Assembly (NCBI RefSeq): GCF_003334305.1
Contig: NZ_QOWS01000021.1
Strand: one strand, 5' to 3'
Origin: Escherichia coli
GTDB lineage: Bacteria; Pseudomonadota; Gammaproteobacteria; Enterobacterales; Enterobacteriaceae
DNA length: 64,000 bases
Part shown: piece after piece, positions 452 through 54,149 of the stretch
How the letters are laid out: each line of letters opens with the position of its first letter
Position numbering within the stretch: position 1 is the stretch's first letter
Made by a program: the position numbers and the translations under genes
Notes under the pieces: model-generated
Told to the model about the DNA's origin: nothing
Seen by the model: the letters and a program-made list of their open reading frames with translations, nothing else
The model's database searches: none

Positions 452-2689
452 GTGGACTGGCTTCTTGATGTTTTTGCAACCTGGCTCTACGGCTTAAAAG
501 TAATCGCGATAACGTTAGCGGTCATCATGTTCATCAGCGGGCTGGACGATTTTTTTATTGATGTCGTCTACTGGGTACGCCGCATTAAACGCAAGTTGAG
601 TGTTTATCGCCGCTACCCGCGAATGAGTTACCGCGAACTGTATAAACCAGATGAAAAACCGTTAGCGATTATGGTTCCGGCGTGGAATGAAACGGGCGTC
701 ATCGGCAATATGGCCGAGCTGGCGGCGACCACGCTCGACTACGAAAACTATCATATCTTTGTTGGCACCTACCCCAACGACCCCGATACTCAACGTGATG
801 TTGACGAAGTGTGCGCTCGCTTTCCGAACGTGCATAAGGTAGTCTGCGCGCGTCCTGGTCCCACCAGCAAAGCCGACTGTCTGAACAACGTGCTGGACGC
901 CATCACCCAGTTTGAACGTAGCGCCAATTTCGCTTTTGCTGGTTTTATTCTGCATGACGCCGAAGATGTGATTTCACCGATGGAATTGCGTCTGTTCAAC
1001 TATCTGGTCGAGCGTAAAGATCTGATTCAGATCCCGGTGTATCCGTTCGAACGCGAATGGACGCACTTCACCAGCATGACTTACATTGATGAGTTTTCAG
1101 AGCTGCATGGCAAAGATGTTCCGGTGCGTGAAGCCCTCGCCGGACAAGTGCCCAGCGCAGGCGTCGGCACCTGTTTCAGCCGCCGCGCCGTGACCGCTCT
1201 GTTAGCTGACGGTGACGGTATTGCTTTCGACGTGCAGAGTCTGACTGAAGATTACGACATTGGTTTCCGCCTGAAAGAGAAAGGTATGACGGAAATTTTT
1301 GTCCGTTTTCCGGTGGTGGACGAAGCCAAAGAACGCGAGCAGCGCAAATTTTTACAGCACGCACGGACGTCAAACATGATCTGCGTGCGCGAATATTTCC
1401 CCGATACCTTTTCGACTGCAGTTCGACAAAAATCTCGCTGGATCATCGGCATTGTTTTCCAGGGCTTTAAAACCCACAAATGGACCTCCAGCCTGACGCT
1501 GAACTACTTTCTCTGGCGCGACCGCAAAGGGGCAATCAGTAACTTTGTCAGCTTCCTCGCGATGCTGGTGATGCTCCAGCTTTTGCTGTTGCTGGCGTAT
1601 GAAAGTTTGTGGCCCAATGCCTGGCATTTCCTTTCTATTTTTAGCGGCAGCGCATGATTAATGACCCTGCTGTGGCTAAACTTTGGCTTGATGGTTAACC
1701 GCATCGTGCAGCGGGTGATTTTCGTCACTGGCTACTACGGTCTGACGCAGGGGCTGCTATCTGTCCTGCGTCTTTTCTGGGGCAACCTGATTAACTTCAT
1801 GGCCAACTGGCGCGCGCTAAAACAGGTACTTCAACACGGCGATCCACGTCGCGTCGCGTGGGATAAAACAACGCATGACTTCCCCAGCGTGACTGGCGAT
1901 ACCCGCTCGTTGCGCCCGTTAGGCCAAATTCTGCTGGAAAATCAGGTCATCACTGAAGAACAACTCGATACAGCACTGCGTAATCGCGTCGAAGGTCTAC
2001 GCCTGGGCGGTTCAATGCTGATGCAGGGGCTGATTAGCGCCGAGCAGCTGGCACAGGCGCTGGCAGAGCAAAACGGCGTGGCGTGGGAATCCATCGATGC
2101 CTGGCAGATCCCGTCCTCGCTGATTGCCGAAATGCCAGCCTCCGTAGCGCTGCATTATGCAGTACTGCCGCTGCGTCTGGAAAATGATGAGTTAATTGTC
2201 GGCAGTGAAGATGGTATTGACCCGGTTTCGCTGGCGGCCCTGACGCGTAAAGTCGGACGCAAAGTGCGTTACGTCATTGTTCTGCGGGGACAAATTGTCA
2301 CGGGGTTACGTCACTGGTATGCACGCCGACGCGGTCACGATCCGCGGGCAATGTTGTACAATGCGGTTCAGCATCAGTGGCTCACGGAACAGCAGACCGG
2401 TGAAATCTGGCGGCAATATGTGCCGCATCAGTTCCTGTTCGCCGAAATACTGACCACGCTCGGTCATATTAATCGTTCAGCAATTAACGTGTTGTTATTG
2501 CGCCATGAACGCAGTTCTCTGCCGCTCGGCAAGTTTTTGGTCACCGAAGGCGTTATCAGCCAGGAAACGTTGGATCGCGTCCTGACAATTCAACGCGAAT
2601 TACAAGTTTCGATGCAATCACTATTACTCAAAGCAGGTTTAAACACAGAACAGGTTGCGCAACTGGAGTCCGAAAATGAAGGAGAATAA
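452..2689 (+). pseudogene. nfrB: NfrB-like GT2 glycosyltransferase (phage N4 adsorption protein B) interrupted by an in-frame TGA at 1655-1657
   Basis: ORFs 452-1657 and 1661-2689 are in the same frame, separated only by a stop and one codon; the joined translation reads as one continuous NfrB-like protein. Confidence 0.7.
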
Positions 2690-9135: not shown

Positions 9136-10620
9136 ATGCGAAAAATAATCACTCATTTCAAAGTTGTTTTAACGTTACTTCTACCAGTAACCGTATCTGC
9201 CCAGCAGATACAGTGGCAATCCTGTATGGCCAGTCAATTCAACCACTGGTTTGGTGAGGAAAAACCGTCTCCTGACTTACTATGTGGTTATTTGTCTGTT
9301 CCATTAAAATATACAGACACAGGCGGAGATGCTTCTTATGAAAAAAAATCACAAGTCAAACTAGCGTTGACAAAATTGCCGGCAAAAAGCAAGCATAAAG
9401 GAAGTATCCTGATAATAAGTGGTGGTCCCGGGTTACCAGGCATAAATCCTTATATTAACTTTGACTGGCCAGTCACAAATCTTCGTGAGTCATGGGATAT
9501 TATTGGATTTGATCCTCGAGGCGTCGGACAGTCCACTCCGACAATAAACTGCCGGCAATCAGATACAGAGACTCAGGAAAACATAACCGAAAAGCAACAA
9601 GTATTAAATAAAATTAATGCCTGTATCCATAATACCGGAGCCGAAGTCATTCGCCATATCGGCTCTAACGAGGCTGTATACGATATTGATCGTATTAGGC
9701 AAGCCTTGGGGGATAAACAACTGACAGCCGTGGCGTATTCGTATGGAACTCAAATTGCAGCCTTATATGCAGAACGTTTTCCCTACAACGTAAGATCTAT
9801 CGTTCTTGATGGAGTCGTCGATATCGATGACCTGGAGGACAACTTCACATGGCAACTCAAACAGGCACAGAGTTATCAGGAAACGTTTGATCGCTTTGCA
9901 TCCTGGTGTGCGCGTACAAAAAGTTGCCCGCTTTCTTCAGACAGAGATAAGGCAATAACTCAGTTCCATGAGCTATTATCAAAATTACATCACAAACCTT
10001 TATTAGACAGTAAGGGAGAAAATATATCTTCAGATGAACTCATATCATTAACAACAGACCTTCTGCTATGGCGTTCATCATGGCCAACCCTTGCAACTGC
10101 CATACGCCAGTTCTCTCAGGGGATTGTCAGTAATGAAATTGAAACTGCGCTCAGTGCTCCGATAGCCTCAGAAGAGTCAAGCGATGCTTCGGGGGTAATC
10201 CTCTGTGTAGATCAGGGGGATGAGCAATTAACACCAGAAGAGCGAAAATCCCGAAAAGACGCTCTTGCGAATGCCTTCCCGGCTATTAACTTTGACAATG
10301 GACGTTCCGATTCACCTGATTTTTGTGAATTATGGCCAATACATAGCGACCTGAACAAAACTCGCCTGAAAAATACTGTTCTGCCCTCTGGTTTACTGTT
10401 TGTAGCACACAAATACGACCCAACAACGCCCTGGATTAATGCCCGTAAGATGGCAGAGAAATTTTCCAGCCCGTTACTAACAATAAATGGTGATGGGCAT
10501 ACATTAGCTCTCACCGGAGTTAATTTATGTGTAGATAAAGCAGTTGTACATTACCTGATCACTCCACAAAAAATAGAAAATATATACTGCCCAGGAAATT
10601 CTGAAGCAGAAATACAATAA
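9136..10620 (+). CDS. Secreted alpha/beta-hydrolase-fold peptidase-like protein (S33 / tripeptidyl-aminopeptidase-like), 494 aa
   Basis: Signal peptide (…VTVSA|QQ), GGPG and Ser-nucleophile-like AYSYGTQ motifs; AT-rich; sits where appY is in K-12. Confidence 0.55.
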   Translation: MRKIITHFKVVLTLLLPVTVSAQQIQWQSCMASQFNHWFGEEKPSPDLLCGYLSVPLKYTDTGGDASYEKKSQVKLALTKLPAKSKHKGSILIISGGPGLPGINPYINFDWPVTNLRESWDIIGFDPRGVGQSTPTINCRQSDTETQENITEKQQVLNKINACIHNTGAEVIRHIGSNEAVYDIDRIRQALGDKQLTAVAYSYGTQIAALYAERFPYNVRSIVLDGVVDIDDLEDNFTWQLKQAQSYQETFDRFASWCARTKSCPLSSDRDKAITQFHELLSKLHHKPLLDSKGENISSDELISLTTDLLLWRSSWPTLATAIRQFSQGIVSNEIETALSAPIASEESSDASGVILCVDQGDEQLTPEERKSRKDALANAFPAINFDNGRSDSPDFCELWPIHSDLNKTRLKNTVLPSGLLFVAHKYDPTTPWINARKMAEKFSSPLLTINGDGHTLALTGVNLCVDKAVVHYLITPQKIENIYCPGNSEAEIQ

Positions 10621-13619: not shown

Positions 13620-14195
13620 CTACGGCAGTGCTGGCCATTCAATATCCTGTGCAGTTGACGTATCAACACGGTTCAGCAACACCCGATACTTTTTCCAGGC
13701 TTCCAGCAATGAGGTTTCTTCCTCCGTTGCGATTTCCAGATCTACAGCATCCTGAAGTGGCGCAATATGCTCACTGGCTACCTGCATCAGGCTGTTTTTT
13801 GTTTCTTCCGCCTCTCGGATCCGGAACAGTTTTTCTGCTTCTGCATCTTTCACCCAGGCTGTGCCGTTCCACTTCTGAAACTCCCCTTCCGGCGATAACC
13901 AGGTAACATTTTCCGGTAACGGACCGAGTTCAGAAATAAATAACGCGTCCCCTGACGCTACGTCATAAACCGTTTTACCCCGATGGTCTTCAACGAGATG
14001 CCACGATGCCTTATCACTGTTGAAAACAGCCACAAAGCCAGCAGGAATATCTGGTGGTGCAATATCGGTACTGTTTGCTGGCAGACCTGTATGAGGCGGA
14101 ATATATGCGTCACCTTCACCAATAAATTCATTAGTTCCGGCCAGCAGATTATAAATTTTTATGGTCCGTGGTTGTTCACTCATTCTGAATGCCAT
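13620..14195 (-). CDS. tfa: Tail fibre assembly protein Tfa, 191 aa
   Basis: Conserved Tfa C-terminal motif; immediately downstream of the side tail fibre gene. Confidence 0.85.
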
Positions 14196-17029
14196 TATGC
14201 AAGCCTCACAATATAGTTAAATGCGATGTTTTTGACGGTGTTTTCCGCGTTACCAGCAGCGTTAACGGTGATGGTGTGTCCATGTGAACCAATCGCAACG
14301 GAGTGCGTATGAGCACCAATACCGACAGTATGCGCGTGTGCACCTGCAGATGCTGCTGTGCCGGACAGTGAATGGCTATGATTACCATCTGTACTGGTAT
14401 TCGCTAACCACCCCGTAGACATACCTACTGAGCCTTGTACACCCCAGGTATTTTGACCTGAGCTTGTATAACCATATTGATAAGTATCTTTAAAAACACT
14501 GGGGTTAAATCGACGGCCATCTCTATGGCTGTGATTACCAGCTGCATTCGTGCTGCCACTTAAACTATGGGTATGCGCACCAGTGTTATTCGTGGATTTA
14601 GTGCCGTAATCAAACGACGATGTGGTTTTCGTCCCCAAATCCGTACTGGATGCGCTGGCGCTGTGGGTATGCGATTTAATGCCGTCCTGTTCCTGAGACA
14701 ATACGGCCCGACCACTGGCAGGTTTGCCCTTAATCGTCCAGCCACGCATATCAGGGATCACGCCTGACGGATAAGCGGCTGCAAGTTTCGGGTATGCAGA
14801 TTTGTCAAAAGTCTGCCCCTGCATCAGGGCATAGCCAGACGGAACGGTATCTGATGGCCACGGGATTGGTGCGCCAGGCGGATAAAACTGCTCTGATGGC
14901 GTATAGAGTGAATAAACTGTACCGTCCGTTAACCCTTCCGGCTTATTAGCAGAATATGCTGGTGACGTATGAATCGTCACGCTGGCATTACTGGTATAAT
15001 CCCATTGAATATTTACACCAGTCGCATAATTTCCGATTGCAACGTAAATATCGTAAGTATCACCAGATGTATTGACCCAGGCAAAATTTGTAAACCCTGT
15101 CGATGTGCGCTGCCATAAAGCACCAGTAATCCCCTTCGGATTACCATTACCTGCACGTAAAACAAGTTCAGATATACCTGCCTGTTGAGGTGACCCCACG
15201 TTAAATCCAGCGCCACCAATCAACGTAATTGAAACAACAGAACTCGCCTGTGGCATGGTTACCGTTGCTAATTTGAACCAACCAGCACCACCGCTGAATG
15301 ACATTGTTGTTGAGTTAAGCGTACCAATATCTTTCGGCGTCAGTGTTATATCCGCTGAAAGCGCCTTACCATTCACCTTACGGGCAGAAGGTACCCGACC
15401 ATTCGCATTGTCATTAGCTGCTTTCACTGCTTTCGGTGTCGCAGCAAGCGTTTCAGATGTGCTGTTGGTTGCACTACTGAGCTGGACAATTCCTTTTTGT
15501 GCTGTCGTAGCGTCCTGTGCGGTGTATTTCCCGTTAGCCAGGTCATACGCGGCCTTAACGGCTTTTGGCGTTGCCGCCTGTGACTCGGAAGTGCTGTTGG
15601 TCGCACTGCTGAGCTGTACTATCCCCTTTTTCGTCGTGCTCGCATCCTCAAGCGCCACGGCGGATGCAATATCCTCTGCCCGTTTTGCTGCTGTCTCGGC
15701 GCGCGTTGCCGCGGATTCCGCCGTACTTTTGCTCTGTGCTGCCGCTGCCGCACTGCCAGCAGCCTCTGTCGCCTTCGTGGATGCCGTCGTGGCGCTGCCC
15801 CTCGCTGCTGACGCCTGTCTGGTCGCCTCATCTTTTGAAGCAGACGCAGATGATGCCGATGACGCCGCCGAACTGGCGGACGATGCGGCAGCCGTTTTTG
15901 AGGATTCTGCGCTGGTTTCCGACGCTTTCGCGTTCGTTTCGGATGTCTTCGCTGCGGAAGCAGACCTCGCTGCTGCGCTGGCCTGTTCAGTGGCTTCGCC
16001 AGCCTTCGTTGTGGCTGTTGAAGCGGATGATGCGGCGCTTTCTGCCGATTTTCCGGCGGCGGTGGCACTGACTGCTGCCTCCTCTGCCTTAATGGACGCC
16101 TCACGGGCCGATGATGCAGCTGCTGTCTCAGAGTCTGCCGCAGCTGAGGCGCTCTGTTCCGCTGCCGTTTCAGAAGACCTGGCATTCGTCTCGGACGTTT
16201 TTGCCGCCTTCACGGAATTTCCTGCCGCCGTTGCCGAGGAGGCTGCACTGCTGGCGCTTGTGGAGGCGTTCGTTTCTGATGATTTTGCCGCCTCTTTGGA
16301 GGCCGCCGCATCTCTGGCTGAAGTGGCGGCTTCTGACGCTTTCGTCGTCGCAGTGGATGCAGAAGTGGCTGCTGATTTTTGTGACGCTGCAGCATTCGTT
16401 TCTGACGTTTTCGCCGCACCGGCACTGGTGGCCGCCGCGCTTTTTGAGGACTCTGCAGCGGCAGCACTTTTTGATGCTTCAGTGGCCTTTGTTGATGCCG
16501 TTCCTGCGCTGGAAGACGCCTCCTGAGCCGAAGTCGCGGCCTGTCCGGCTGACGTGCTGGCTGCACGCGCTGAGCCTGCAGCATCAGTCGCATGGGTTGC
16601 CGCCTCACGGGCAGATGTGCCGGCATCACTGGCTGACTTCTTCGCGGCTGCCGTGTTCTGTGCCACCGCGGACGCGTTACGCGTCACCTCTTCCACCATC
16701 AGTTCAAAACGGCGCAGAGCCTCCGGACGGGCATCATCCTCCGTCATGGCACCGAGAAAATCATTCAGCGTACCGGGTCGGGAATCTTCATACACGGTGA
16801 TGGTCCCGGCATGTGACGGCGGGAATCCTTCCACCAACAGAATAACGCTGTACTGACCGTACTCAACGTCCATGCTGTAACGCCCGGCTTCATCCGGATT
16901 TTCTGAGGCCAGCGTGTTCACCACCACCGTGGTGCTGTTACGTTTTGCTTTCAGCTGGATTGTGCAGTTCTGTACCGGTTTTCCTGTGCCGTCTTTCAGT
17001 ACACCTGAAATCTTTACTGCCATATTCAC
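14195..17029 (-). CDS. stf: Side tail fibre protein (Stf-like), 944 aa, with long Ala/Ser/Thr-rich repeats
   Basis: Repeated KTSETNA-type units, His-rich C-terminal tip (HTHS…HSHS…HAHT…HGHT); lies between lom and tfa. Confidence 0.85.
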
Positions 17030-17087: not shown

Positions 17088-17687
17088 TCAGAACTTATAA
17101 CCGACACCCACGATGAAACCGTCAGTGCGCCAGTCGCCACTGCCGGAGCCTTCATAAGCAATATCAATGGCCACGGATTCGGTCGGGTTAAACTGCACGC
17201 CAGCTCCCCACGCCAGAGACGTGTTGCTGTGGCGACCGTCATCACTTCCGGTCAGCACGTCGTGCGTTTTCCCCTTGTTGTCAGTTACGCGGAGATAATC
17301 CCCGGAGAAAGTCGACACACGGCTGTAAGCCACACCCGCCATCGCATACGCGCTGAACCATTCATTCACGCGCACAGACGGCCCCGCCATTACGCTGAAC
17401 CAGCGGTTACGAACGGAATCTTCATGCCAGCGAGTATCGCTGTAATGGGTCAGTTGGCGATTCTTGTCTCCTGCATAGCTGAATGACGTCACCAGCCCCA
17501 GCGTATCCGTAAACTCATAACGGTATTTCACGTTAATCCCGTTCAGATCATCACTGCCGGGAACGTTGGTCCGGGCATGAAGATACCCCGCGCTCAGCGT
17601 GGACTGATGTTCAGACGCCCATGCAGGCGCACCGGATACGGCCAGACAAATGGCTGCGGACAAAATGGCGGCACAAACTTTACGCAT
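17088..17687 (-). CDS. lom: Lom outer membrane protein (Ail/Lom family), 199 aa
   Basis: Signal peptide plus beta-barrel-like sequence ending …VGVGYKF; directly downstream of J as in lambda. Confidence 0.85.
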   Translation of the reverse strand: MRKVCAAILSAAICLAVSGAPAWASEHQSTLSAGYLHARTNVPGSDDLNGINVKYRYEFTDTLGLVTSFSYAGDKNRQLTHYSDTRWHEDSVRNRWFSVMAGPSVRVNEWFSAYAMAGVAYSRVSTFSGDYLRVTDNKGKTHDVLTGSDDGRHSNTSLAWGAGVQFNPTESVAIDIAYEGSGSGDWRTDGFIVGVGYKF

Positions 17688-23248: not shown

Positions 23249-23577
23249 CAGTTCACCACCTGTTCAAACTCTGCGCTGAACTCAACACGCAGCATACTGA
23301 CCCGCGACGACCATTTTGCGCAGGTCACCTTTATCTGCCGCCACTCATAAGGCGGCGTCCACAGAAAGGATTTCCAGCCCCCGTGCTCTTCCAGAAACGA
23401 CTCCAGTACCGTGGCCTCCTCACGGGGGACAGAAAGCGTCACGCTGTACGTTTTCAGGTTGGCATTCAGCCCGGCAGGCGCTCGCTGAGAATAGCCATCA
23501 CCAAAGCGCACCTTTCTTACAGAAGGGACCGAAGCCACATCCATACCGGGTTTCACTTTCCAGCGGAAGGTCTTCAT
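23248..23577 (-). CDS. M: Minor tail protein M, 109 aa
   Basis: Matches lambda M; lambda gene order. Confidence 0.9.
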   Translation of the reverse strand: MKTFRWKVKPGMDVASVPSVRKVRFGDGYSQRAPAGLNANLKTYSVTLSVPREEATVLESFLEEHGGWKSFLWTPPYEWRQIKVTCAKWSSRVSMLRVEFSAEFEQVVN

Positions 23578-26135
23578 CGTCCACCTCCGGAGAACAGGCC
23601 ACCATCACGCATCTGTGTCTGAATTTCATCACGGGCACCCTTGCGGGCCATGTCATACACCGCCTTCAGAGCAGCCGGACCTATCTGCCCGTTCGTGCCG
23701 TCGTTGTTAATCACCACATGGTTATTCTGCTCAAACGTCCCGGACGCCTGCGACCGGCTGTCTGCCATGCTGCCCGGTGTACCGACATAACCGCCGGTGG
23801 CATAGCCGCGCATCAGCCGGTAAAGATTCCCCACGCCAATCCGGCTGGTTGCCTCCTTCGTGAAGACAAACTCACCACGGTGAACAATCCCCGCTGGCTC
23901 ATATTTGCCGCCGGTTCCCGTAAATCCTCCGGTTGCAAAATGGAATTTCGCCGCAGCGGCCTGAATGGCTGTACCGCCTGACGCGGATGCGCCGCCACCA
24001 ACAGCCCCGCCAATGGCGCTGCCGATACTCCCGACAATCCCCACCATTGCCTGCTTAAGCAGAATTTCTGTCATCATGGACAGCACGGAACGGGTGAAGC
24101 TGCGCCAGTTCTGCTCACTGCCGGTCAGCATCGCTGCCATATTCTGTGCAATACCATCAAAGGTCTGCGTGGCTGCACTTTTTACCTGCGACATACTGTC
24201 CGTGGCGCTCTCTTCCCACTCACTCCAGCCGGACTTCAGGCCTGCCATCCAGCTCCCGCGAAGCTGGTCTTCAGCCGCCCAGGTCTTTTTCTGCTCTGAC
24301 ATGACGTTATTCAGCGCCAGCGGATTATCGCCATACTGTTCCTTCAGGCGCTGTTCCGTGGCTTCCCGTTCTGCCTGCCGGTCAGTCAGCCCCCGGCTTT
24401 TCGCATCAATGGCGGCCCGTTTTGCCCGTTGCTGCTGTGCGAATTTATCCGCCTGCTGCGCCAGCGCGTTCAGGCGCTCCTGATACGTAACCTTGTCGCC
24501 AAGTGCAGCCAGCTGGCGTTTGTACTCCAGCGTCTCATCTTTATGCGCCAGCAGGGATTTCTCCTGTGCGGATAGCTGGCGACGTTGTGCCGCCTCCTCC
24601 AGTACCGCGAACTGACTTTCTGCCTTCCACAAATCCCGGCGCTGCTGGCTGATTTTCTCATTTGCTCCGGCATGCTTCTCCAGCGTCCGGAGTTCTGCCT
24701 GAAGCGTCAGCAGGGCAGCATGAGCACTGTCTTCCTGACGATCGCCCGCAGACACCTTCACGCCGGACTGTTTCGGCTTTTTCAGCGTCGCTTCATAATC
24801 CTTTTTCGCCGCCGCCATCAGCGTGTTGTAATCCGCCTGCAGGATTTTCCCGTCTTTCAGTGCCTTGTTCAGTTCTTCCTGACGGGCGGTATATTTCTCC
24901 AGCGGCGTCTGCAGCCGTTCGTAAGCCTTCTGCGCCTCTTCGGTATATTTCAGCCGTGACGCTTCGGTATCGCTCTGCTGCTGCGCATTTTTGTCCTGTT
25001 GAGTCTGCTGCTCAGCCTTCTTTCGGGCGGCTTCAAGCGCAAGACGGGCCTTTTCACGATCATCCCAGTAACGCGCCCGCGCTTCATCGTTAACAAAATA
25101 ATCATCCTTGCGCAGATTCCAGATGTCGTCTGCTTTCTTAAACGCAGCCTCTGCCTTAATCAGCATCTCCTGCGCGGTATCAGGACGACCAATATCCAGC
25201 ACCGCATCCCACATGGATTTGAAGGCCCGCGCAGTCCTGTCTGCCCAGGTCTCCAGCGTGCCCATGTTCTCTTTCAGGCGGCGGGTCTGGTCATCAAACC
25301 CTTTCGTTGCGGCCTCGTTCGCCGCCTGCAATGCCCCGGCTTCATCGCCGGAACGCTGCAACTGAGCAACATACGCAATCTGCTCCGCCGTCACGTTATG
25401 GAACTGGCGTGCCATCGCCGTCAGCCCCGACGTCGGGTCTGTGGTCAGCTTCCCGAAGGCTTCAGCGACCTTGTCCACCTCCACGCCGGATGCAGAGGAG
25501 AAACGCGCCACACTCTGGCTGATGGACGCAATCTGAGCCTCACCGCTTACCCCCGCCTTAACCAGTGCGCTGAGTGACTCGCTGGTCTGGTTAAACGTCA
25601 GCCCTGCCGCCTGCCCGGCTCTGGACAGGACCAGCATACGATCTGCCGTCAGCCCCGACTGATTGCCGGAAAGGACCAGCGTTTTGTTGAAATCGGACAA
25701 GGTTGAGTTGCCCTGATACCAGGCATACGCCAGCGCACCGGTCGCCACCGCCAGCGAGGTGGCCCCCACCATCGGCAGGGTGATCGCACCGGCAAGCCCC
25801 CTGAACATGGGGATCATCCCGCCGAAGGAGTCCTTAACCTGACCACCCTGTTGCAGCAGGATCAGCCACGGACTTTGCCCGCCTGCAAGCTGCGTGGCCA
25901 CGTCGGTGAACTGTGCAGGCAGCATACGCATGGCGGCTTTATACTGCCCGACGGAAATCCCCGCTTTCTGTGCAGCCAGCGCCTGTCGGCTCAGCGACTG
26001 TTCAACGACTGCCGCTGTTTTTTTCGCATCACTTTCCGTACCGGAAAAATGACGCCTGACTCTGGCCATCTGCTCGTCAAATCTGGCCGCATCCAGACTC
26101 AAATCAACGACCAGATCGCCTACCGGTTCAGCCAT
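23574..26135 (-). CDS. H: Tail tape measure protein H, 853 aa
   Basis: Same length and sequence as lambda H as recalled. Confidence 0.95.
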   Translation of the reverse strand: MAEPVGDLVVDLSLDAARFDEQMARVRRHFSGTESDAKKTAAVVEQSLSRQALAAQKAGISVGQYKAAMRMLPAQFTDVATQLAGGQSPWLILLQQGGQVKDSFGGMIPMFRGLAGAITLPMVGATSLAVATGALAYAWYQGNSTLSDFNKTLVLSGNQSGLTADRMLVLSRAGQAAGLTFNQTSESLSALVKAGVSGEAQIASISQSVARFSSASGVEVDKVAEAFGKLTTDPTSGLTAMARQFHNVTAEQIAYVAQLQRSGDEAGALQAANEAATKGFDDQTRRLKENMGTLETWADRTARAFKSMWDAVLDIGRPDTAQEMLIKAEAAFKKADDIWNLRKDDYFVNDEARARYWDDREKARLALEAARKKAEQQTQQDKNAQQQSDTEASRLKYTEEAQKAYERLQTPLEKYTARQEELNKALKDGKILQADYNTLMAAAKKDYEATLKKPKQSGVKVSAGDRQEDSAHAALLTLQAELRTLEKHAGANEKISQQRRDLWKAESQFAVLEEAAQRRQLSAQEKSLLAHKDETLEYKRQLAALGDKVTYQERLNALAQQADKFAQQQRAKRAAIDAKSRGLTDRQAEREATEQRLKEQYGDNPLALNNVMSEQKKTWAAEDQLRGSWMAGLKSGWSEWEESATDSMSQVKSAATQTFDGIAQNMAAMLTGSEQNWRSFTRSVLSMMTEILLKQAMVGIVGSIGSAIGGAVGGGASASGGTAIQAAAAKFHFATGGFTGTGGKYEPAGIVHRGEFVFTKEATSRIGVGNLYRLMRGYATGGYVGTPGSMADSRSQASGTFEQNNHVVINNDGTNGQIGPAALKAVYDMARKGARDEIQTQMRDGGLFSGGGR

Positions 26136-26562
26136 ACCGGACTCCTCCTGCGATCCCTTCTGATACTGTCATCAGCATTACGTCATCCTCCGTCATGTCC
26201 GCCACATCCGGGGAAGTAGGGATAACTTCATTCCCGTCCGGGCCAAAGCGGACACCTCCGGCAAGCCCTGCCGCTTTCTGCATCAGCACATCATCTTCAG
26301 GCTCTTCGTCAGCCTCGCGCCGGTTCAGCAGACTGAAATCCAGCGGATGCATATCCGGATCGCTGAAAAACAGGCTGAGCACGGTGTACGTCAGCCCGGA
26401 AAAGTGCATATCCAGCAGAACATCATGAAAATAATGGGTACTGTAAAAGCGGTGCCAGTCGGCATACTCCGTGGATGACATCCCGGCAAGCATGGCACGC
26501 CAGTCGGGTCGCCCCATCTCACGCGCCAGTTTCAGGGCAAAACTCAGCTCACCGTCGAACAC
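26128..26562 (-). CDS. T: Tail assembly chaperone T segment (expressed as the G-T frameshift fusion)
   Basis: 144-aa ORF overlapping the 3' end of G in the -1 frame. Confidence 0.85.
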   Translation of the reverse strand: MFDGELSFALKLAREMGRPDWRAMLAGMSSTEYADWHRFYSTHYFHDVLLDMHFSGLTYTVLSLFFSDPDMHPLDFSLLNRREADEEPEDDVLMQKAAGLAGGVRFGPDGNEVIPTSPDVADMTEDDVMLMTVSEGIAGGVRYG

Positions 26563-26966
26563 TTTCCCGCAGAAACAGGCTCTGCGGGCCCGGCGACCTC
26601 TGTCTGTTCAGGGGCATTATTCACAACAAACTCATACATACCAGACAGCCGGTACACCACGTTTTCAGCATGAGAAATTGCCTCCGTGGGCCAGGTGGTA
26701 AGCACTTCCTGCTCAATCTGTTTAACGGCTTCATTCATGGACGGCATCTGCGTCTTCTGCGGATGGTTATGCCACAGGGACATCGCCACCAGAAACGCGC
26801 CGGTTCTGATGGCGTCTTCCACAGTAAACTTCCGGTTGCTGTCTGACTCCGCCTGTTCTGCCTGCCGTTTCATCAGGGCGAGATGCTCAATACGCTGCAG
26901 GGCTGACAGTTCAGAAAGCGTGACGGTCACGCCGTTATGTTCAAATGATTCGGTTTTCAGGAACAT
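26544..26966 (-). CDS. G: Tail assembly chaperone G, 140 aa
   Basis: Matches lambda G; lambda gene order V-G-T-H. Confidence 0.9.
   Translation of the reverse strand: MFLKTESFEHNGVTVTLSELSALQRIEHLALMKRQAEQAESDSNRKFTVEDAIRTGAFLVAMSLWHNHPQKTQMPSMNEAVKQIEQEVLTTWPTEAISHAENVVYRLSGMYEFVVNNAPEQTEVAGPAEPVSAGKCSTVS
26563..26569 (-). other. Programmed -1 ribosomal frameshift slippery site GGGAAAG (G to G-T)
   Basis: The heptamer is present on the coding strand exactly in the G/T overlap; coordinates approximate. Confidence 0.7.
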
Positions 26967-26981
26967 CGCTGACTCTCCGGA

Positions 26982-27722
26982 TTAACTGTCGGTGACAGTG
27001 ATTTCTGCAACCGCAGCAAGTTCACCATTACCGGATACAACCGGAATGTTGACCTTACCTGCAGCAACGCCTTTCACGGTGATGGTCATACCACTGACCG
27101 ACACGGTGGCTTTTGTTTTATCCGCTGACACCGCACGGAAGCTCTTGTCAGTTGCGCCCTCCGGCTGGAATGCTGCGGTCAGCGTGGTGCTCTGCCCTTT
27201 CACCACCGAGGAGCTGGCAGGCGTCACAGTCATACCGGTTGCCGCCGTCACCGTACTGCGATCTTCTGCCATTGACGGACGGCCCACATTGGTGACCTTC
27301 ACCGTACGGGTGATCACTTCCTTCGCCGTCACCGCCTTACCGATACTGCTGACCCAGCCACGGAACACATCGACCGTGCCGTTCGGGAAGCGGATTTTAT
27401 AGGCACGGGTATCACCTTCATTAAACCACGCCAGCAGCGCCTGCTGCCCCTGCTCTCCGGGCATCCACGCCAGCGTGAAGCTGGTATCTCCGGCGGATTT
27501 CTGCCCCTGCCCGGTCGCGGTCCAGTCCGCATCTTCATCATCGAGATAACTGTCGTCATAGGACTCAGCGGTCAGTTCGCCGGGCGTCAGGTCTTTAACT
27601 TTAGCCAGACGCGACCAGTCAACGTCTGAAAGCGGGTTCGCATAAGGGTCGCCGCTCCCGTTATAAACCCACAGGGTGGTTCCGGCACCTTTCACCGGTA
27701 TTGCTGGATTTGGTACAGGCAT
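26982..27722 (-). CDS. V: Major tail tube protein V, 246 aa
   Basis: ORF 26982-27752; internal Met gives the lambda V N-terminus MPVPNP…. Confidence 0.9.
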
Positions 27723-37427: not shown

Positions 37428-37721
37428 ATGAAAAAAATGTTGTTTTCTGCCGCTCTGGCAATGCTTATTACAGGATGTGCTCAACAGACGTTTACTGTTG
37501 GAAACAAACCGACAGCAGTAACACCAAAGGAAACCATCACCCATCATTTCTTCGTTTCGGGAATTGGACAGGAGAAAACTGTTGATGCAGCCAAAATTTG
37601 TGGCGGCGCAGAAAATGTTGTTAAAACAGAAACCCAGCAAACATTCGTAAATGGATTTCTCGGTTTTATTACTTTAGGCATTTATACTCCGCTGGAAGCG
37701 CGTGTGTATTGCTCACAATAA
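37428..37721 (+). CDS. bor: Bor lipoprotein (serum-resistance-associated), 97 aa
   Basis: MKKMLFSAALAMLITGCAQQ lipobox; matches lambda Bor; opposite orientation to the lysis genes. Confidence 0.85.
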   Translation: MKKMLFSAALAMLITGCAQQTFTVGNKPTAVTPKETITHHFFVSGIGQEKTVDAAKICGGAENVVKTETQQTFVNGFLGFITLGIYTPLEARVYCSQ

Positions 37722-37752
37722 TTGCATGAGTTGCCCATCGATATGGGCAGCT

Positions 37753-39496: not shown

Positions 39497-40579
39497 ATGA
39501 AAAAATTAACAGTGGCAATTTCTGCTGTAGCTGCATCAGTACTGATGGCGATGTCTGCTCAGGCAGCTGAAATTTATAATAAAGACAGTAACAAGCTGGA
39601 TCTGTACGGGAAAGTTAATGCTAAGCACTACTTCTCCTCTAATGATGCAGATGATGGTGATACTACTTATGCCCGTCTTGGCTTCAAAGGTGAAACCCAA
39701 ATCAACGATCAACTGACTGGTTTCGGTCAGTGGGAATATGAATTCAAAGGCAACCGCGCTGAATCTCAAGGTTCCTCCAAAGATAAAACCCGTCTTGCCT
39801 TCGCTGGCCTGAAATTCGGTGACTACGGCTCCATCGATTATGGCCGTAACTACGGTGTAGCATACGATATTGGTGCATGGACCGACGTTCTGCCAGAATT
39901 CGGTGGCGATACCTGGACCCAAACAGATGTATTCATGACTGGTCGCACCACAGGTGTTGCAACTTATCGTAACAACGACTTCTTTGGTCTGGTTGATGGC
40001 CTGAACTTTGCAGCTCAGTATCAGGGCAAAAATGACCGAAATGAAGTAACTGAAGCTAATGGCGATGGTTTCGGTTTCTCAACTACTTATGAGTATGAAG
40101 GATTCGGCGTGGGTGCAACCTATGCTAAATCTGATCGCACTAATAATCAGGTTATCTACGGTAACAACGGTCTGAATGCTTCTGGTCAAAATGCTGAAGT
40201 ATGGGCAGCTGGTCTGAAATATGATGCGAACAACATCTATCTGGCCACCACCTATTCTGAAACCCAGAACATGACTGTTTTTGGTAATAACCATATTGCC
40301 AACAAAGCACAAAACTTCGAAGCTGTTGCACAATATCAGTTCGACTTCGGCCTGCGTCCATCCGTTGCTTACCTGCATTCTAAAGGAAAAGACTTGGGTG
40401 TTTGGGGTGATCAGGACCTGGTTGAATATGTTGATGTAGGTGCAACCTATTACTTCAACAAAAATATGTCCACTTTTGTTGACTACAAAATCAACCTGAT
40501 TGATAAGAGCGATTTCACGAAAGCATCTGGCGTTGCTACCGATGATATCGTTGCTGTAGGTATGGTTTACCAGTTCTAA
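39497..40579 (+). CDS. nmpC: Prophage-encoded general porin (NmpC/Lc, OmpC/OmpF family), 360 aa, apparently intact
   Basis: Signal peptide, porin beta-barrel sequence ending …VGMVYQF; located between Q and the lysis genes as in DLP12. Confidence 0.9.
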
Positions 40580-46380: not shown

Positions 46381-46420
46381 TGTTTTGACCATCAATACGC
46401 AAGCGTATAAATTAAAACTT

Positions 46421-47113
46421 ATGAAAAAAGAAACTCTTGCTGATCGCTTAAATCTAGCGATGGAACAATCTGGAATGTCTCAAGGCGCTCTTGCAAAGGC
46501 GTCTGGCGTAGCTCAACCCACAATCTGGAGACTGACAAGCGGCAACGCGCGCGGCTCAACAAAAATTGTTGAAATAGCTAATGCATTGGGTGTTCGAACA
46601 GAATGGCTCTCTTCAGGCATAGGCCCGATGAGAAATGACGGTCAACAATCAGGGAAGCCTGCTGTCAGCCATTCCAAATACTTCAAAATTGACGTTCTTG
46701 ATATAGAAGTCAGTGCCGGGCCGGGTGTAATCAACCGTGAGTTTGTAGAAGTTCTACGCTCGGTTGAATACTCGTTTGACGATGCTCGTCACATGTTCGA
46801 TGGCAGGAAGGCGGAAAATATCCGCATCATTAACGTGCGTGGTGACAGCATGTCAGGAACGATCGAACCAGGTGATCTGCTGTTCGTTGATATCACGGTT
46901 AAATCTTTCGACGGTGATGGTATCTATGCGTTTCTGTATGACGACACCGCCCATGTAAAACGCCTGCAAATGATGAAGGATAAGCTGCTGGTTATCTCTG
47001 ATAACAAGAGCTACTCACCGTGGGACCCGATCGAGAAAGACGAGATGAACCGCGTGTTCATCTTCGGGAAAGTCATCGGGAGCATGCCGCAGACATATAG
47101 AAAGCATGGGTAG
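46421..47113 (+). CDS. cI: CI-type repressor (HTH + S24 LexA-like peptidase domain), 230 aa
   Basis: N-terminal HTH (MSQGALAKASGVAQPTIWRL) and C-terminal S24 region (VRGDSMSGTIEPGDLLFVD…KRL). Confidence 0.85.
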   Translation: MKKETLADRLNLAMEQSGMSQGALAKASGVAQPTIWRLTSGNARGSTKIVEIANALGVRTEWLSSGIGPMRNDGQQSGKPAVSHSKYFKIDVLDIEVSAGPGVINREFVEVLRSVEYSFDDARHMFDGRKAENIRIINVRGDSMSGTIEPGDLLFVDITVKSFDGDGIYAFLYDDTAHVKRLQMMKDKLLVISDNKSYSPWDPIEKDEMNRVFIFGKVIGSMPQTYRKHG

Positions 47114-47242: not shown

Positions 47243-48382
47243 ATGGCAGCGGTTGAATTTCAATTGTCTAGGAAGATGATTGATTGGATAGCAAATTCTC
47301 AAGGAGTTTCTATCGAAACTCTTGCTGACCAAGTCATGCCCAAAAAGATTAATAAATTTCTTAACGGAGTGGTAAGTAAATCCGCAGCAGAAAAACTGGC
47401 AAAAATTGGAGGAATCCCTTTCGGTTTTTTATTTCTTGAAACGCCACCAACTCCAGCCAAACCCAAGATCCCTGACTTAAGGCAAGCTATAAATAGCCGT
47501 GAGTTAGGAAAAGATTTTTTTGATGTTTACTATGATATAGAATATAAACTTGAGTGGTACAAAGACTATTTAAGAGAAAATGGTAATGATGATCCACTCG
47601 ATTTTATTGGTAAATTTAAATTTAATAGAAAATTAAATTATAAGGTTGTTGCTACAGACATAGCAAACACAATACATTTTGATATACAAAAAGAGATAAA
47701 AAATGTCACTTTTGAGAGCTATTTTTCTAAAGTGGCAAAACTAATAGAAGACACTGGCGTATTAGTTTTCAAGAATGGTGTTGTGGGTAATAATAATAAA
47801 AGAAAACTTGACACGCGAGAGTTTCGTGGTTTCTGTATATCTGATAGCGTTGCTCCGATCATTTTTGTAAATAGCTCGGACGCGTTATCTGCGCAGGTAT
47901 TTACATTATTTCATGAGGTGGCTCATCTTTGGCTTGGAGTCGATGGAGTCTCTGGGTGGGACACAGAAAAAAACATAGAATCTTTTTGTAATAAAGTTGC
48001 TGCTGAAATCTTAATGCCTGATAATCTCTTCAAATCTTTCTGGCTTAATGCATCCAGCGATAATAATTATTATCGAGTAAAAGAGGTTTCTAAGTTATTT
48101 AAGGTTAGTGATTTCGCTTGTGCAATCAAAGCGTTACAATTAGATTTGATAGAAAGAAACACTTTGGAGATAATTAAAGATCAAGCTTACAATAAGCCCA
48201 AAAAAGAATCCAATGGTGGTTCTTTCTTTAACACATTACCTGTTCGTAACAGTCCAAAACTTACGAATATAATAATTTCCAAAGCAATGTCTCAACAATT
48301 ACCATTAAGGGAAGCAGGCGTACTGCTAAATGTAAAAGCAGATACAGTTGTTGAATTTTATAAAAAACGAGAATCTCTATGA
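47243..48382 (+). CDS. HTH-fused ImmA/IrrE-family (M78/DUF955-like) zinc metallopeptidase, 379 aa
   Basis: N-terminal XRE-like HTH; HEXXH motif (FHEVAHLW); AGGTGA SD; AT-rich; directly downstream of cI. Confidence 0.7.
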   Translation: MAAVEFQLSRKMIDWIANSQGVSIETLADQVMPKKINKFLNGVVSKSAAEKLAKIGGIPFGFLFLETPPTPAKPKIPDLRQAINSRELGKDFFDVYYDIEYKLEWYKDYLRENGNDDPLDFIGKFKFNRKLNYKVVATDIANTIHFDIQKEIKNVTFESYFSKVAKLIEDTGVLVFKNGVVGNNNKRKLDTREFRGFCISDSVAPIIFVNSSDALSAQVFTLFHEVAHLWLGVDGVSGWDTEKNIESFCNKVAAEILMPDNLFKSFWLNASSDNNYYRVKEVSKLFKVSDFACAIKALQLDLIERNTLEIIKDQAYNKPKKESNGGSFFNTLPVRNSPKLTNIIISKAMSQQLPLREAGVLLNVKADTVVEFYKKRESL

Positions 48383-48891
48383 TTCATAATGGAAAATTCT
48401 TAATTGATAGTAATGTCTTCATAGAGGCAAAAAACTTTGCATATAACTTCAATTATTGCAAAATATTTTGGGATTTTCTTCTCGCTTTACACATTAATGG
48501 TCTGATTTATAGCATTAATGCTGTAAAAAAAGAACTATGTGCAAAAGATGATCCATTGTGTAAATGGATTAAAGAAGAGTTACCATCATCATTCTTCGAA
48601 GATGAGCATAGTTCAATAGAAAATTATGCAAAGTTAATAAATTGGTCAACTAAATTAGATGTTACCGAAAAGGCAAAGTTTGATTTTGCAAGCCATGAAA
48701 AAGCAGATGCTTTTTTAATAGCCCATGCGATGACACATGGATATACTATTATTACCCATGAGAAACCATCCGGTGGCAAACCTAAAAAAAGAATAATGAT
48801 CCCGGATGCTGCTGCTTCTCACGGCGTTAAGACATTAACACTATATGAATTTCTTCCAAGATACGCTAGTCATAATTTTTCTTTGAAATAA
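48379..48891 (+). CDS. PIN-like (possibly DUF4411-family) putative nuclease/effector, 170 aa
   Basis: ATGA overlap with the upstream gene; N-terminal strand-Asp motif (FLIDSNVFIEA) typical of PIN folds; fold assignment is tentative. Confidence 0.5.
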   Translation: MIHNGKFLIDSNVFIEAKNFAYNFNYCKIFWDFLLALHINGLIYSINAVKKELCAKDDPLCKWIKEELPSSFFEDEHSSIENYAKLINWSTKLDVTEKAKFDFASHEKADAFLIAHAMTHGYTIITHEKPSGGKPKKRIMIPDAAASHGVKTLTLYEFLPRYASHNFSLK

Positions 48892-52695: not shown

Positions 52696-53038
52696 GGCCT
52701 GTCAGTTTCTTAAGATATCCAGACCAACCGCCACCAACTGGATACGAACAGGCCGCCTACAGGCAACACGTAAAGATCCAACCAAGCCAAAATCTCCTTA
52801 CCTCACAACACGGCAAGCCTGCATTGCGGCGCTTCAGTCTCCGCTGCATACTGTCCAGGTGAGCGCGGGTGATGGCATAACAGAGGAAAGAAAATGTCAC
52901 TCTTCCGCAGAAATGAAATATGGTATGCCTCGTATTCGCTCCCGGGCGGGAAACGAATTAAGGAATCTCTTGGCACAAAGGACAAGCGGCAAGCTCAGGA
53001 GTTGCACGACAAGCGAAAAGCAGAACTCTGGCGAGTAG
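52667..53038 (+). CDS. xis: Putative excisionase (Xis-like HTH protein); overlaps the int start
   Basis: ORF 52637-53038; internal Met [31 protein letters not shown] has an HTH; lies immediately upstream of int. Confidence 0.45.
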
Positions 53039-54057
53039 AAAAGCTAGGGGATTTACCTGATGTCACTTTTGAAGAGGCCTGCCTAAGATGGCTTGAGGAA
53101 AAAGCTGATAAAAAATCTCTCGATTCAGATAAAAGCCGGATTGAGTTCTGGCTTGAACATTTTGAGGGTATAAGGCTTAAAGATATCTCGGAGGCAAAGA
53201 TTTACTCTGCTGTAAGCAGAATGCATAACAGAAAGACGAAAGAAATATGGAAACAGAAAGTTCAGGCCGCCATCAGGAAAGGTAAAGAACTGCCTGTTTA
53301 TGAACCAAAGCCAGTATCAACTCAGACAAAGGCAAAGCATCTTGCCATGATAAAGGCCATTCTCCGTGCTGCAGAACGCGACTGGAAGTGGCTGGAAAAA
53401 GCGCCTGTCATCAAGATACCAGCGGTCAGAAACAAGCGAGTCAGATGGCTGGAAAAGGAGGAAGCAAAACGCCTTATTGATGAGTGCCCCGAACCACTGA
53501 AATCTGTCGTCAAGTTTGCGCTGGCAACTGGTCTGAGAAAGTCGAACATCATAAATCTGGAATGGCAACAAATCGACATGCAGCGACGAGTTGCCTGGGT
53601 GAATCCAGAAGAGAGCAAATCAAACCGCGCCATTGGTGTGGCGCTGAACGATACCGCCTGTAAAGTGTTGCGTGATCAAATAGGCAAGCATCACAAATGG
53701 GTGTTTGTACATACCAAGGCGGCTAAGCGAGCAGATGGAACATCAACGCCTGCGGTCAGGAAGATGCGCATCGACAGCAAGACATCATGGCTATCAGCTT
53801 GTCGTCGTGCAGGAATTGAAGATTTCCGTTTCCATGACCTCAGACACACCTGGGCAAGCTGGCTGATTCAGTCAGGCGTCCCATTATCAGTGCTTCAGGA
53901 AATGGGCGGATGGGAGTCCATAGAAATGGTTCGTAGGTATGCTCACCTTGCGCCTAATCATTTGACAGAGCATGCGAGGAAAATAGACGACATTTTTGGT
54001 GATAATGTCCCAAATATGTCCCACTCTGGAATTATGGAGGATATAAAGAAGGCGTAA
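52894..54057 (+). CDS. intD: Tyrosine integrase (IntD-like), 387 aa
   Basis: Matches DLP12 integrase as recalled; C-terminal catalytic region (…[15 protein letters not shown]…RYAHL); adjacent to tRNA-Arg. Confidence 0.9.
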
Positions 54058-54072
54058 CTGATTGAATTGTAA

Positions 54073-54117
54073 TGGCGCGCCCTGCAGGATTCGAACCTGC
54101 GGCCCACGACTTAGAAG
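54073..54117. repeat. attR core (3' 45 nt of argU), identical to 7529-7573
   Basis: Direct repeat seen in sequence. Confidence 0.85.
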
Positions 54118-54149
54118 GTCGTTGCTCTATCCAACTGAGCTAAGGGCGC
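54073..54149 (-). tRNA. argU: tRNA-Arg (anticodon UCU), argU; prophage attachment site
   Basis: Reverse complement reads GCGCCCTTAGCTCAGTTGGATAGAGCAACGACCTTCTAAGTCGTGGGCCGCAGGTTCGAATCCTGCAGGGCGCGCCA (77 nt, cloverleaf-compatible, CCA end); coordinates approximate. Confidence 0.9.

Follow-up and report, generated by a model that had tools for sequence, protein, structure and literature searches.

A predicted lambda-type G-T programmed −1 ribosomal frameshift site in a lambda-like Escherichia coli prophage

The overlapping tail genes G and T of a lambda-like prophage in Escherichia coli raise the question of how the T sequence is expressed, whether as the carboxy-terminal part of a fusion protein (gpGT) made by a programmed −1 ribosomal frameshift, as a protein initiated on its own, or not at all. 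We analyzed this locus within a stretch of 64,000 nucleotides from contig NZ_QOWS01000021.1, termed the window in the following. The data point to the canonical lambda G-T programmed −1 ribosomal frameshift site in a lambda-like E. coli prophage, a reading to which we assign a probability of about 95%.

An exact read of the sequence located the heptamer GGGAAAG at positions 26562–26568 on the minus strand, which is the coding strand here. In the frame of gene G it is phased as G GGA AAG, within the context ...CCT GTT TCT GCG GGA AAG TGT TCG ACG GTG AGC TGA, and from its end 18 nt remain to the end of the G stop codon, a TGA at 26546–26544 that starts 15 nt past the heptamer. Read from the heptamer in the −1 frame, the same nucleotides give GGG AAA GTG TTC GAC..., translating into GKVFDGELSFALKLAREMGRPDWRAM... 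(GKVFDGELSF...), and this T frame continues uninterrupted over 146 codons from the slip down to position 26128, with its stop lying 8 nt inside the H open reading frame (ORF). On the upstream side the T frame is closed by a TGA at 26610–26608 and is open only back to 26607. The site and the overlap are thereby defined as follows.

26562–26568, minus strand: slippery heptamer G GGA AAG (type X XXY YYZ) in the zero frame of G, identical to lambda in sequence and position

26547–26607, minus strand: G/T overlap of 61 nt in which both frames are open and in which a −1 shift must fall for a fusion to form

Within this 61-nt overlap, GGGAAAG is the sole complete X XXY YYZ motif in the G frame. The first-pass annotation had placed the heptamer on the coding strand in the overlap of G with the T ORF, which is where we found it; the range given at that time, 26544–26569, extends from the TGA stop of G to one base 5′ of the heptamer and contains it.

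The genes surrounding the site, together with the composite coding region expected from a shift, comprise the following features.

26544–26966, minus strand: gene G, tail assembly chaperone gpG, 140 aa, ending with ...PVSAGKCSTVS before the stop (TIGR01674, PF06894)

26128–26568, minus strand: T frame from slip to stop, 146 codons, GKVFDGELSF...GGVRYG followed by the stop, predicted carboxy-terminal part of gpGT (TIGR01715, PF06223)

26128–26966, minus strand: composite gpGT coding region, a predicted 279-aa fusion of G codons 1–135, a −1 shift and the T frame

26982–27722, minus strand: gene V, major tail tube protein, directly upstream of G (coordinates mapped from the annotation of strain A7)

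23574–26135, minus strand: gene H, tape measure protein, 853 aa, its start overlapping the T stop by 8 nt (from the ORF list and the A7 annotation)

All four genes lie on the minus strand in the order V-G-T-H as in lambda, with the overlapping G and T between the genes for the tube and the tape measure protein. None of the four contains a premature stop, and the ORFs of G and of the T frame are full length. For family searches the fusion was built from G residues 1–135 and the T frame, resulting in a sequence of 279 aa. This predicted protein passed two curated NCBIfam equivalog models, TIGR01674 (phage_lambda_G) with 212 bits against a cut-off of 74.45 and TIGR01715 (phage_lam_T) with 185.8 bits against a cut-off of 77.35, and matched the Pfam families PF06894 (Phage_TAC_2; E = 2.7e-60) and PF06223 (Phage_tail_T; E = 1.6e-13). 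It also aligned end to end, over residues 1–278 of 279, with the full-length GT family PHROG 32165 (E = 8e-126); among solved structures, none matched gpGT by sequence. The full-length ORFs, the V-G-T-H order and the passing of both NCBIfam models corroborate the earlier proposal of an intact tail assembly chaperone module.

We compared the locus with known phages, and the segment 26100–27000 (minus strand) matched 121 phage records. Escherichia phage PhiR30_1 matches the G-T region at 100% identity; lambda (NC_001416/J02459, positions 9678–10577, where its records carry annotations for G, T, V and H) matches it at 99.1%, with 8 differences in 900 nt. In the pairwise alignment with lambda the stretch from 30 nt before to 343 nt beyond the heptamer is free of differences. 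Six of the eight differences are located in G or T coding sequence (four synonymous, two missense), the remaining two upstream of the G start; at the protein level gpG differs from its lambda counterpart by one residue, a D in lambda that is V here, near residue 124, and T likewise by one, an A in lambda that is T here. The codon-level alignment with lambda, which the first-pass annotation had suggested as a check, yielded an identical site, phase and distance to the stop, and the description of the site as being as in lambda holds for the heptamer, its phase, the stop distance and the flanks alike. The likeness to the lambda G/G-T system (Levin, Hendrix & Casjens 1993; Xu, Hendrix & Duda 2004, 2013, 2014), all as cited in PMC5009743, comprises the heptamer, its phase, the 18-nt distance, the V-G-T-H order, a G of 140 aa and a T ORF of 144 aa, whereas the element here, unlike lambda, has a DLP12-type integrase and resides as a prophage at argU instead of attB-lambda. 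Since the window sequence is identical to lambda around the site, we infer with high confidence that it would behave in the same way as the experimentally characterized lambda site.

The same comparison returned a GenBank record, MW057783.1, entitled 'Campylobacter phage CJLB-4' (host Campylobacter jejuni, 48,361 bp), whose match to the G-T region is 99.1%, the same as that of lambda, and which carries lambda gene names. This record looks like lambda contamination or a mislabelled entry.

In lambda the shift occurs at G GGA AAG, where the zero frame is kept at ~96% and the efficiency amounts to ~4% (PMC3296357), and hypomodification of tRNA-Lys at U34 leads to a higher shift rate and a lower phage yield (PMC3296357, PMC7618472). 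By analogy, a ribosome translating G in the prophage would have its P site occupied by tRNA-Gly on GGA and its A site by the only tRNA-Lys of E. coli (anticodon mnm5s2UUU) on AAG. In a small fraction of passes the two tRNAs would slip back by one base and re-pair with GGG and AAA, after which the next codon would be GTG (Val) instead of TGT (Cys), the G stop would be bypassed and 144 more codons would be translated. The expected outcome is gpG (140 aa) as the main product, accompanied by a few per cent of gpGT (279 aa). PMC5009743, with reference to Levin et al. 1993 and to Xu et al. [quoted passage not shown] With these roles carried over from lambda, the G part of gpG and gpGT would coat gpH here, and the T part of gpGT would recruit gpV. 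On the side of the literature, we observed that section 9 of Maynard et al. 2012 (PMC3296357) gives the lambda site in its text as 'GGGTTTG', with codons GGT-TTG, whereas Table 1 of the same paper lists GGGAAAG; the version in the text is a complementation error on the part of the authors that does not affect the window.

The conservation of the site was assessed across 13 related loci anchored on the G stop, with whole-region nucleotide identity down to ~75% and partial matches at ~72%. A slippery site is located at the homologous point in all 13 relatives and always ends in A AAG, taking the form GGGAAAG in lambda, HK630, PhiR30_1, PhiR11_1, PhiR12_2 and an Stx2a phage, AAAAAAG in Stx1_9793, VT1-Sakai and 1720a-02, and GGAAAAG in N15, mEp213, LLS and the Klebsiella phage Kp4865-4. 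Twelve of the 13 have 18 nt between the end of the heptamer and the end of the G stop; the exception, Kp4865-4, has its stop 12 nt closer to a site that is nonetheless homologous. A heptamer whose wording varies, with slipperiness and the A-site AAG kept, is the signature one would expect of selection on a property and not on a sequence. The sites of N15, phi80-like phages, mEp213 and LLS (GGAAAAG) and those of the Stx1 phages (AAAAAAG) resemble the present one in a homologous G/T pair, a homologous slip position, an A-site AAG and a −1 fusion to T. They differ in the P-site codon, which is GAA or AAA versus GGA here, and GGAAAAG departs from the strict X XXY YYZ pattern; moreover, T is shorter in the N15-type and Stx1 phages, with 115–119 codons versus 146 here.

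T-frame length also varies within these groups, with 119 codons in VT1-Sakai and 1720a-02 versus 154 in the closely related Stx1_9793, and 115–119 in the N15-type phages. Based on these length differences among relatives, the carboxy-terminal third of T would appear to be variable or dispensable.

The mere presence of the heptamer carries little information, as the window contains 8 copies of GGGAAAG compared with 7.75 ± 2.64 expected. Heptamer enrichment was therefore dropped as evidence, the count being at chance level, and with the bare heptamer occurring at the chance rate the evidence rests on its phase and context, which were used instead. To this end all in-frame X XXY YYZ heptamers in stop-to-stop ORFs of at least 100 codons were scanned in the six frames (n = 115). 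Wherever the −1 extension is longer than at the G-T site, the heptamer belongs to an ORF that runs in the wrong frame or on the wrong strand of a larger one, and in two such longer-extension cases, at terminase A and int, a check by position confirmed that the supposed −1 frame is the frame of the real gene. Of the X XXA AAG type, which is shift-prone in E. coli (PMC5009743), seven heptamers occur in frame in ORFs of at least 100 codons, and only at the G-T site does the −1 frame pass the zero-frame stop, by 413 nt.

T might alternatively initiate separately at the GTG at 26562–26560, giving a 144-aa 'minor tail protein T', in which case the heptamer would be incidental. This is how T is commonly recorded: a free-standing 144-aa CDS from GTG, of the type 26128–26562 (minus strand) and with no ribosomal-slippage join, is listed in RefSeq lambda, in many phage records including PhiR30_1 and in E. 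coli genomes annotated by PGAP, which at the A7 locus calls gpG and 'phage tail assembly protein T' as two CDSs, and the ORF listing of the window gives the same ORF. The GTG, however, lies inside or abuts the heptamer, and the 20 nt upstream of it (GAGCCTGTTTCTGCGGGAAA) contain no properly spaced Shine-Dalgarno element. Furthermore, this database start is not conserved, being replaced by GTC, GCA or GCC in relatives, whereas conservation of the −1-frame peptide sets in right at the first post-slip codon (VFDGELSFALKLAR / AFEGELNFVLKLAR / ALASELKFAMKLAR). As the peptide is conserved upstream of any start codon, this stretch must be translated by ribosomes coming from G, and the conservation of the T-frame peptide argues for a fusion over separate initiation. 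In line with this, the T sequence has been reported only as part of gpGT (PMC5009743, PMC3296357). We rejected independent initiation of T on the basis of the non-conserved start codon and of the Shine-Dalgarno element absent from those 20 nt, and regard it as very improbable; the separate T CDS of most records is an annotation convention and not evidence. Among the records examined, some already describe the shift: the LLS record contains a joined CDS together with the slip site and the N15 record a slip site, both as a −1 frameshift, a note in the mEp213 record describes T as the downstream half of a frameshift product, and HK630 names the product 'GT'.

A further alternative concerns the state of the prophage, which could be defective or never expressed, the site being a relic kept by recent descent and without current function. 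The element extends from ~13.6 to 54.1 kb, adjoins tRNA-Arg(TCT) at 54073–54149 (minus strand) and carries a DLP12-type integrase gene, int, at 52894–54057 (plus strand); sfm/fimZ flank it on one side and ompT/envY/nfrAB on the other. We interpret the region ~13600–54150 as a lambda-like prophage that is integrated at argU, the DLP12 site, and seems complete. With the chromosome of E. coli strain A7 (NZ_CP028767.1) the window shares 99.98% identity, and the late genes are 96.6–99.2% identical to lambda-like phages such as PhiR30_1. In favor of a relic, argU is the location of the defective prophage DLP12 in E. coli K-12, and the near-identical A7 copy has a frameshifted Rz/Rz1 lysis region. 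In the window, on the other hand, the Rz ORF is open, the late-gene ORFs, Nu1 through tfa, have all kept their full length, G, T, V and H contain no premature stops, and the phage records that best match the late region at the above identities have laboratory or reference strains of E. coli (C, K-12 MG1655, ECOR13) as their GenBank hosts. We thus consider it very doubtful that the site is a mere remnant.

Least credible of all is transcriptional slippage, in which RNA polymerase would gain or lose a base in the GGGAAA run in place of a shift by the ribosome. Polymerase slippage depends on homopolymer tracts that are much longer than the three-base runs present here, and since the runs are only this long and the conserved feature is codon phase, we give this explanation almost no weight. 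Slippage of this kind is used in some other systems (PMC5009743) and some relatives do carry a six-A run, AAAAAAG, at the same position, but the conserved X XXY YYZ phase matters for tRNA re-pairing and not for a polymerase, and the lambda shift responds to thiolation of tRNA-Lys U34, which is a translational effect (PMC3296357).

For the programmed −1 ribosomal frameshift we also considered elements that might stimulate it. Upstream of the slip, the 25 nt CCGGGCCCGCAGAGCCTGTTTCTGC contain no Shine-Dalgarno-like element, neither GGAGG nor an AGGA-like one. Downstream, folding suggested one candidate.

26485–26553, minus strand: predicted RNA hairpins, a candidate frameshift modulator, beginning 8 nt 3′ of the heptamer

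In a single-sequence fold, the 92 nt after the heptamer reached a minimum free energy of −38.7 kcal/mol (z = −2.4). A consensus fold over 12 relatives, whose sequences are not independent, comprised 24 pairs with 95.8% of the cells paired, and compensatory change was observed in only 2 of the 24 pairs, one of them being a G-C to A-U switch in a single clade. In a crude scan of 12 relatives, synonymous variation dipped to 0.09–0.15 over T codons 4–18, just 3′ of the G stop, compared with 0.29 overall. The hairpin and the synonymous signals are confounded, as part of the stretch is dual-coded with the last codons of G, the helices coincide with LAREMGRPDWRAMLAGM, the T motif of highest conservation, and the sequences are related. 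That the ~70 nt after the slip (26485–26553, minus strand) form a conserved hairpin tuning a low frameshift rate, and thereby setting the G:GT ratio, is in our view a tentative and rather unlikely proposal derived from folding models. An Rfam scan of the whole window yielded no family over the slip site, the only matches being tRNA-Arg and IS009 elsewhere. For lambda itself we know of no recognizable stimulatory structure that has been established, and the 1993 lambda study reportedly observed a modest effect of downstream sequence without a recognizable structure. A useful comparison is provided by E. coli dnaX, where A AAA AAG gives rise to tau and gamma and which shares the shift-prone A-site Lys codon, the single tRNA-Lys and tandem slippage (PMC5009743). 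In contrast to the present site, where the corresponding Shine-Dalgarno-like element is missing from the 25 nt upstream and a hairpin is only predicted, dnaX possesses both an upstream Shine-Dalgarno-like element and a downstream hairpin; its efficiency is ~50% and the shift truncates the protein, whereas the efficiency in lambda is ~4% (PMC3296357) and the G-T shift extends the protein.

Several observations were made in the remainder of the window. The side tail fibre gene stf (14195–17023, minus strand) lacks 132 nt (44 codons, in frame) relative to its counterpart in the otherwise near-identical A7, with the junction near 15459–15629; the overlap of BLAST segments at this junction suggests a copy-number change in an internal repeat. 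The Rfam IS009 (RF02111) match, with 226.7 bits at 13654–13852 (minus strand), lies within the tail fibre assembly gene tfa (13620–14195, minus strand), and this family is probably built on prophage tfa sequence and does not represent an independent RNA gene. An XRE-type repressor gene (46385–47113, plus strand) adjoins genes for an ImmA/IrrE metallopeptidase (47243–48382, plus strand) and a DUF4411 protein (48379–48891, plus strand), of which the latter two overlap. These two genes could constitute an anti-repressor or defence pair; PADLOC run on the neighbouring accessory genes, which are unrelated to the slip site, produced only weak RmrA/CapP-like matches for the peptidase and no match for the DUF4411 protein. 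Further accessory genes encode an OmpC/NmpC-like porin between Q and the lysis genes (39497–40579, plus strand), an Iss/Bor serum-survival lipoprotein (~37429–37722, plus strand) and an Ail/Lom outer-membrane protein (17088–17687, minus strand). Outside the prophage, nfrB (452–2689, plus strand) seems to be split by an internal stop into ORFs at 452–1657 and 1661–2689, and A7 has a pseudogene call with an 'internal stop' for it; nfrA and nfrB are phage N4 adsorption genes.

G-T DNA is widespread in the species, being present with at least 80% of the segment covered in 3693 of 5426 complete E. coli genomes, about two thirds, and at a median of two copies among the genomes with any match. Given this distribution, there is nothing strain-specific to be learned from the locus: the G-T frameshift is already known and this copy is entirely ordinary. 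The finding matters little beyond annotation, where T is better described as the ribosomal-slippage product gpGT, with the join at 26562–26568, than as a separate 144-aa CDS. For the prophage, our analysis indicates an intact G-T module that, by analogy with lambda, would be expected to produce gpG and gpGT at the ratio found in lambda, which fits a prophage still able to build tails.
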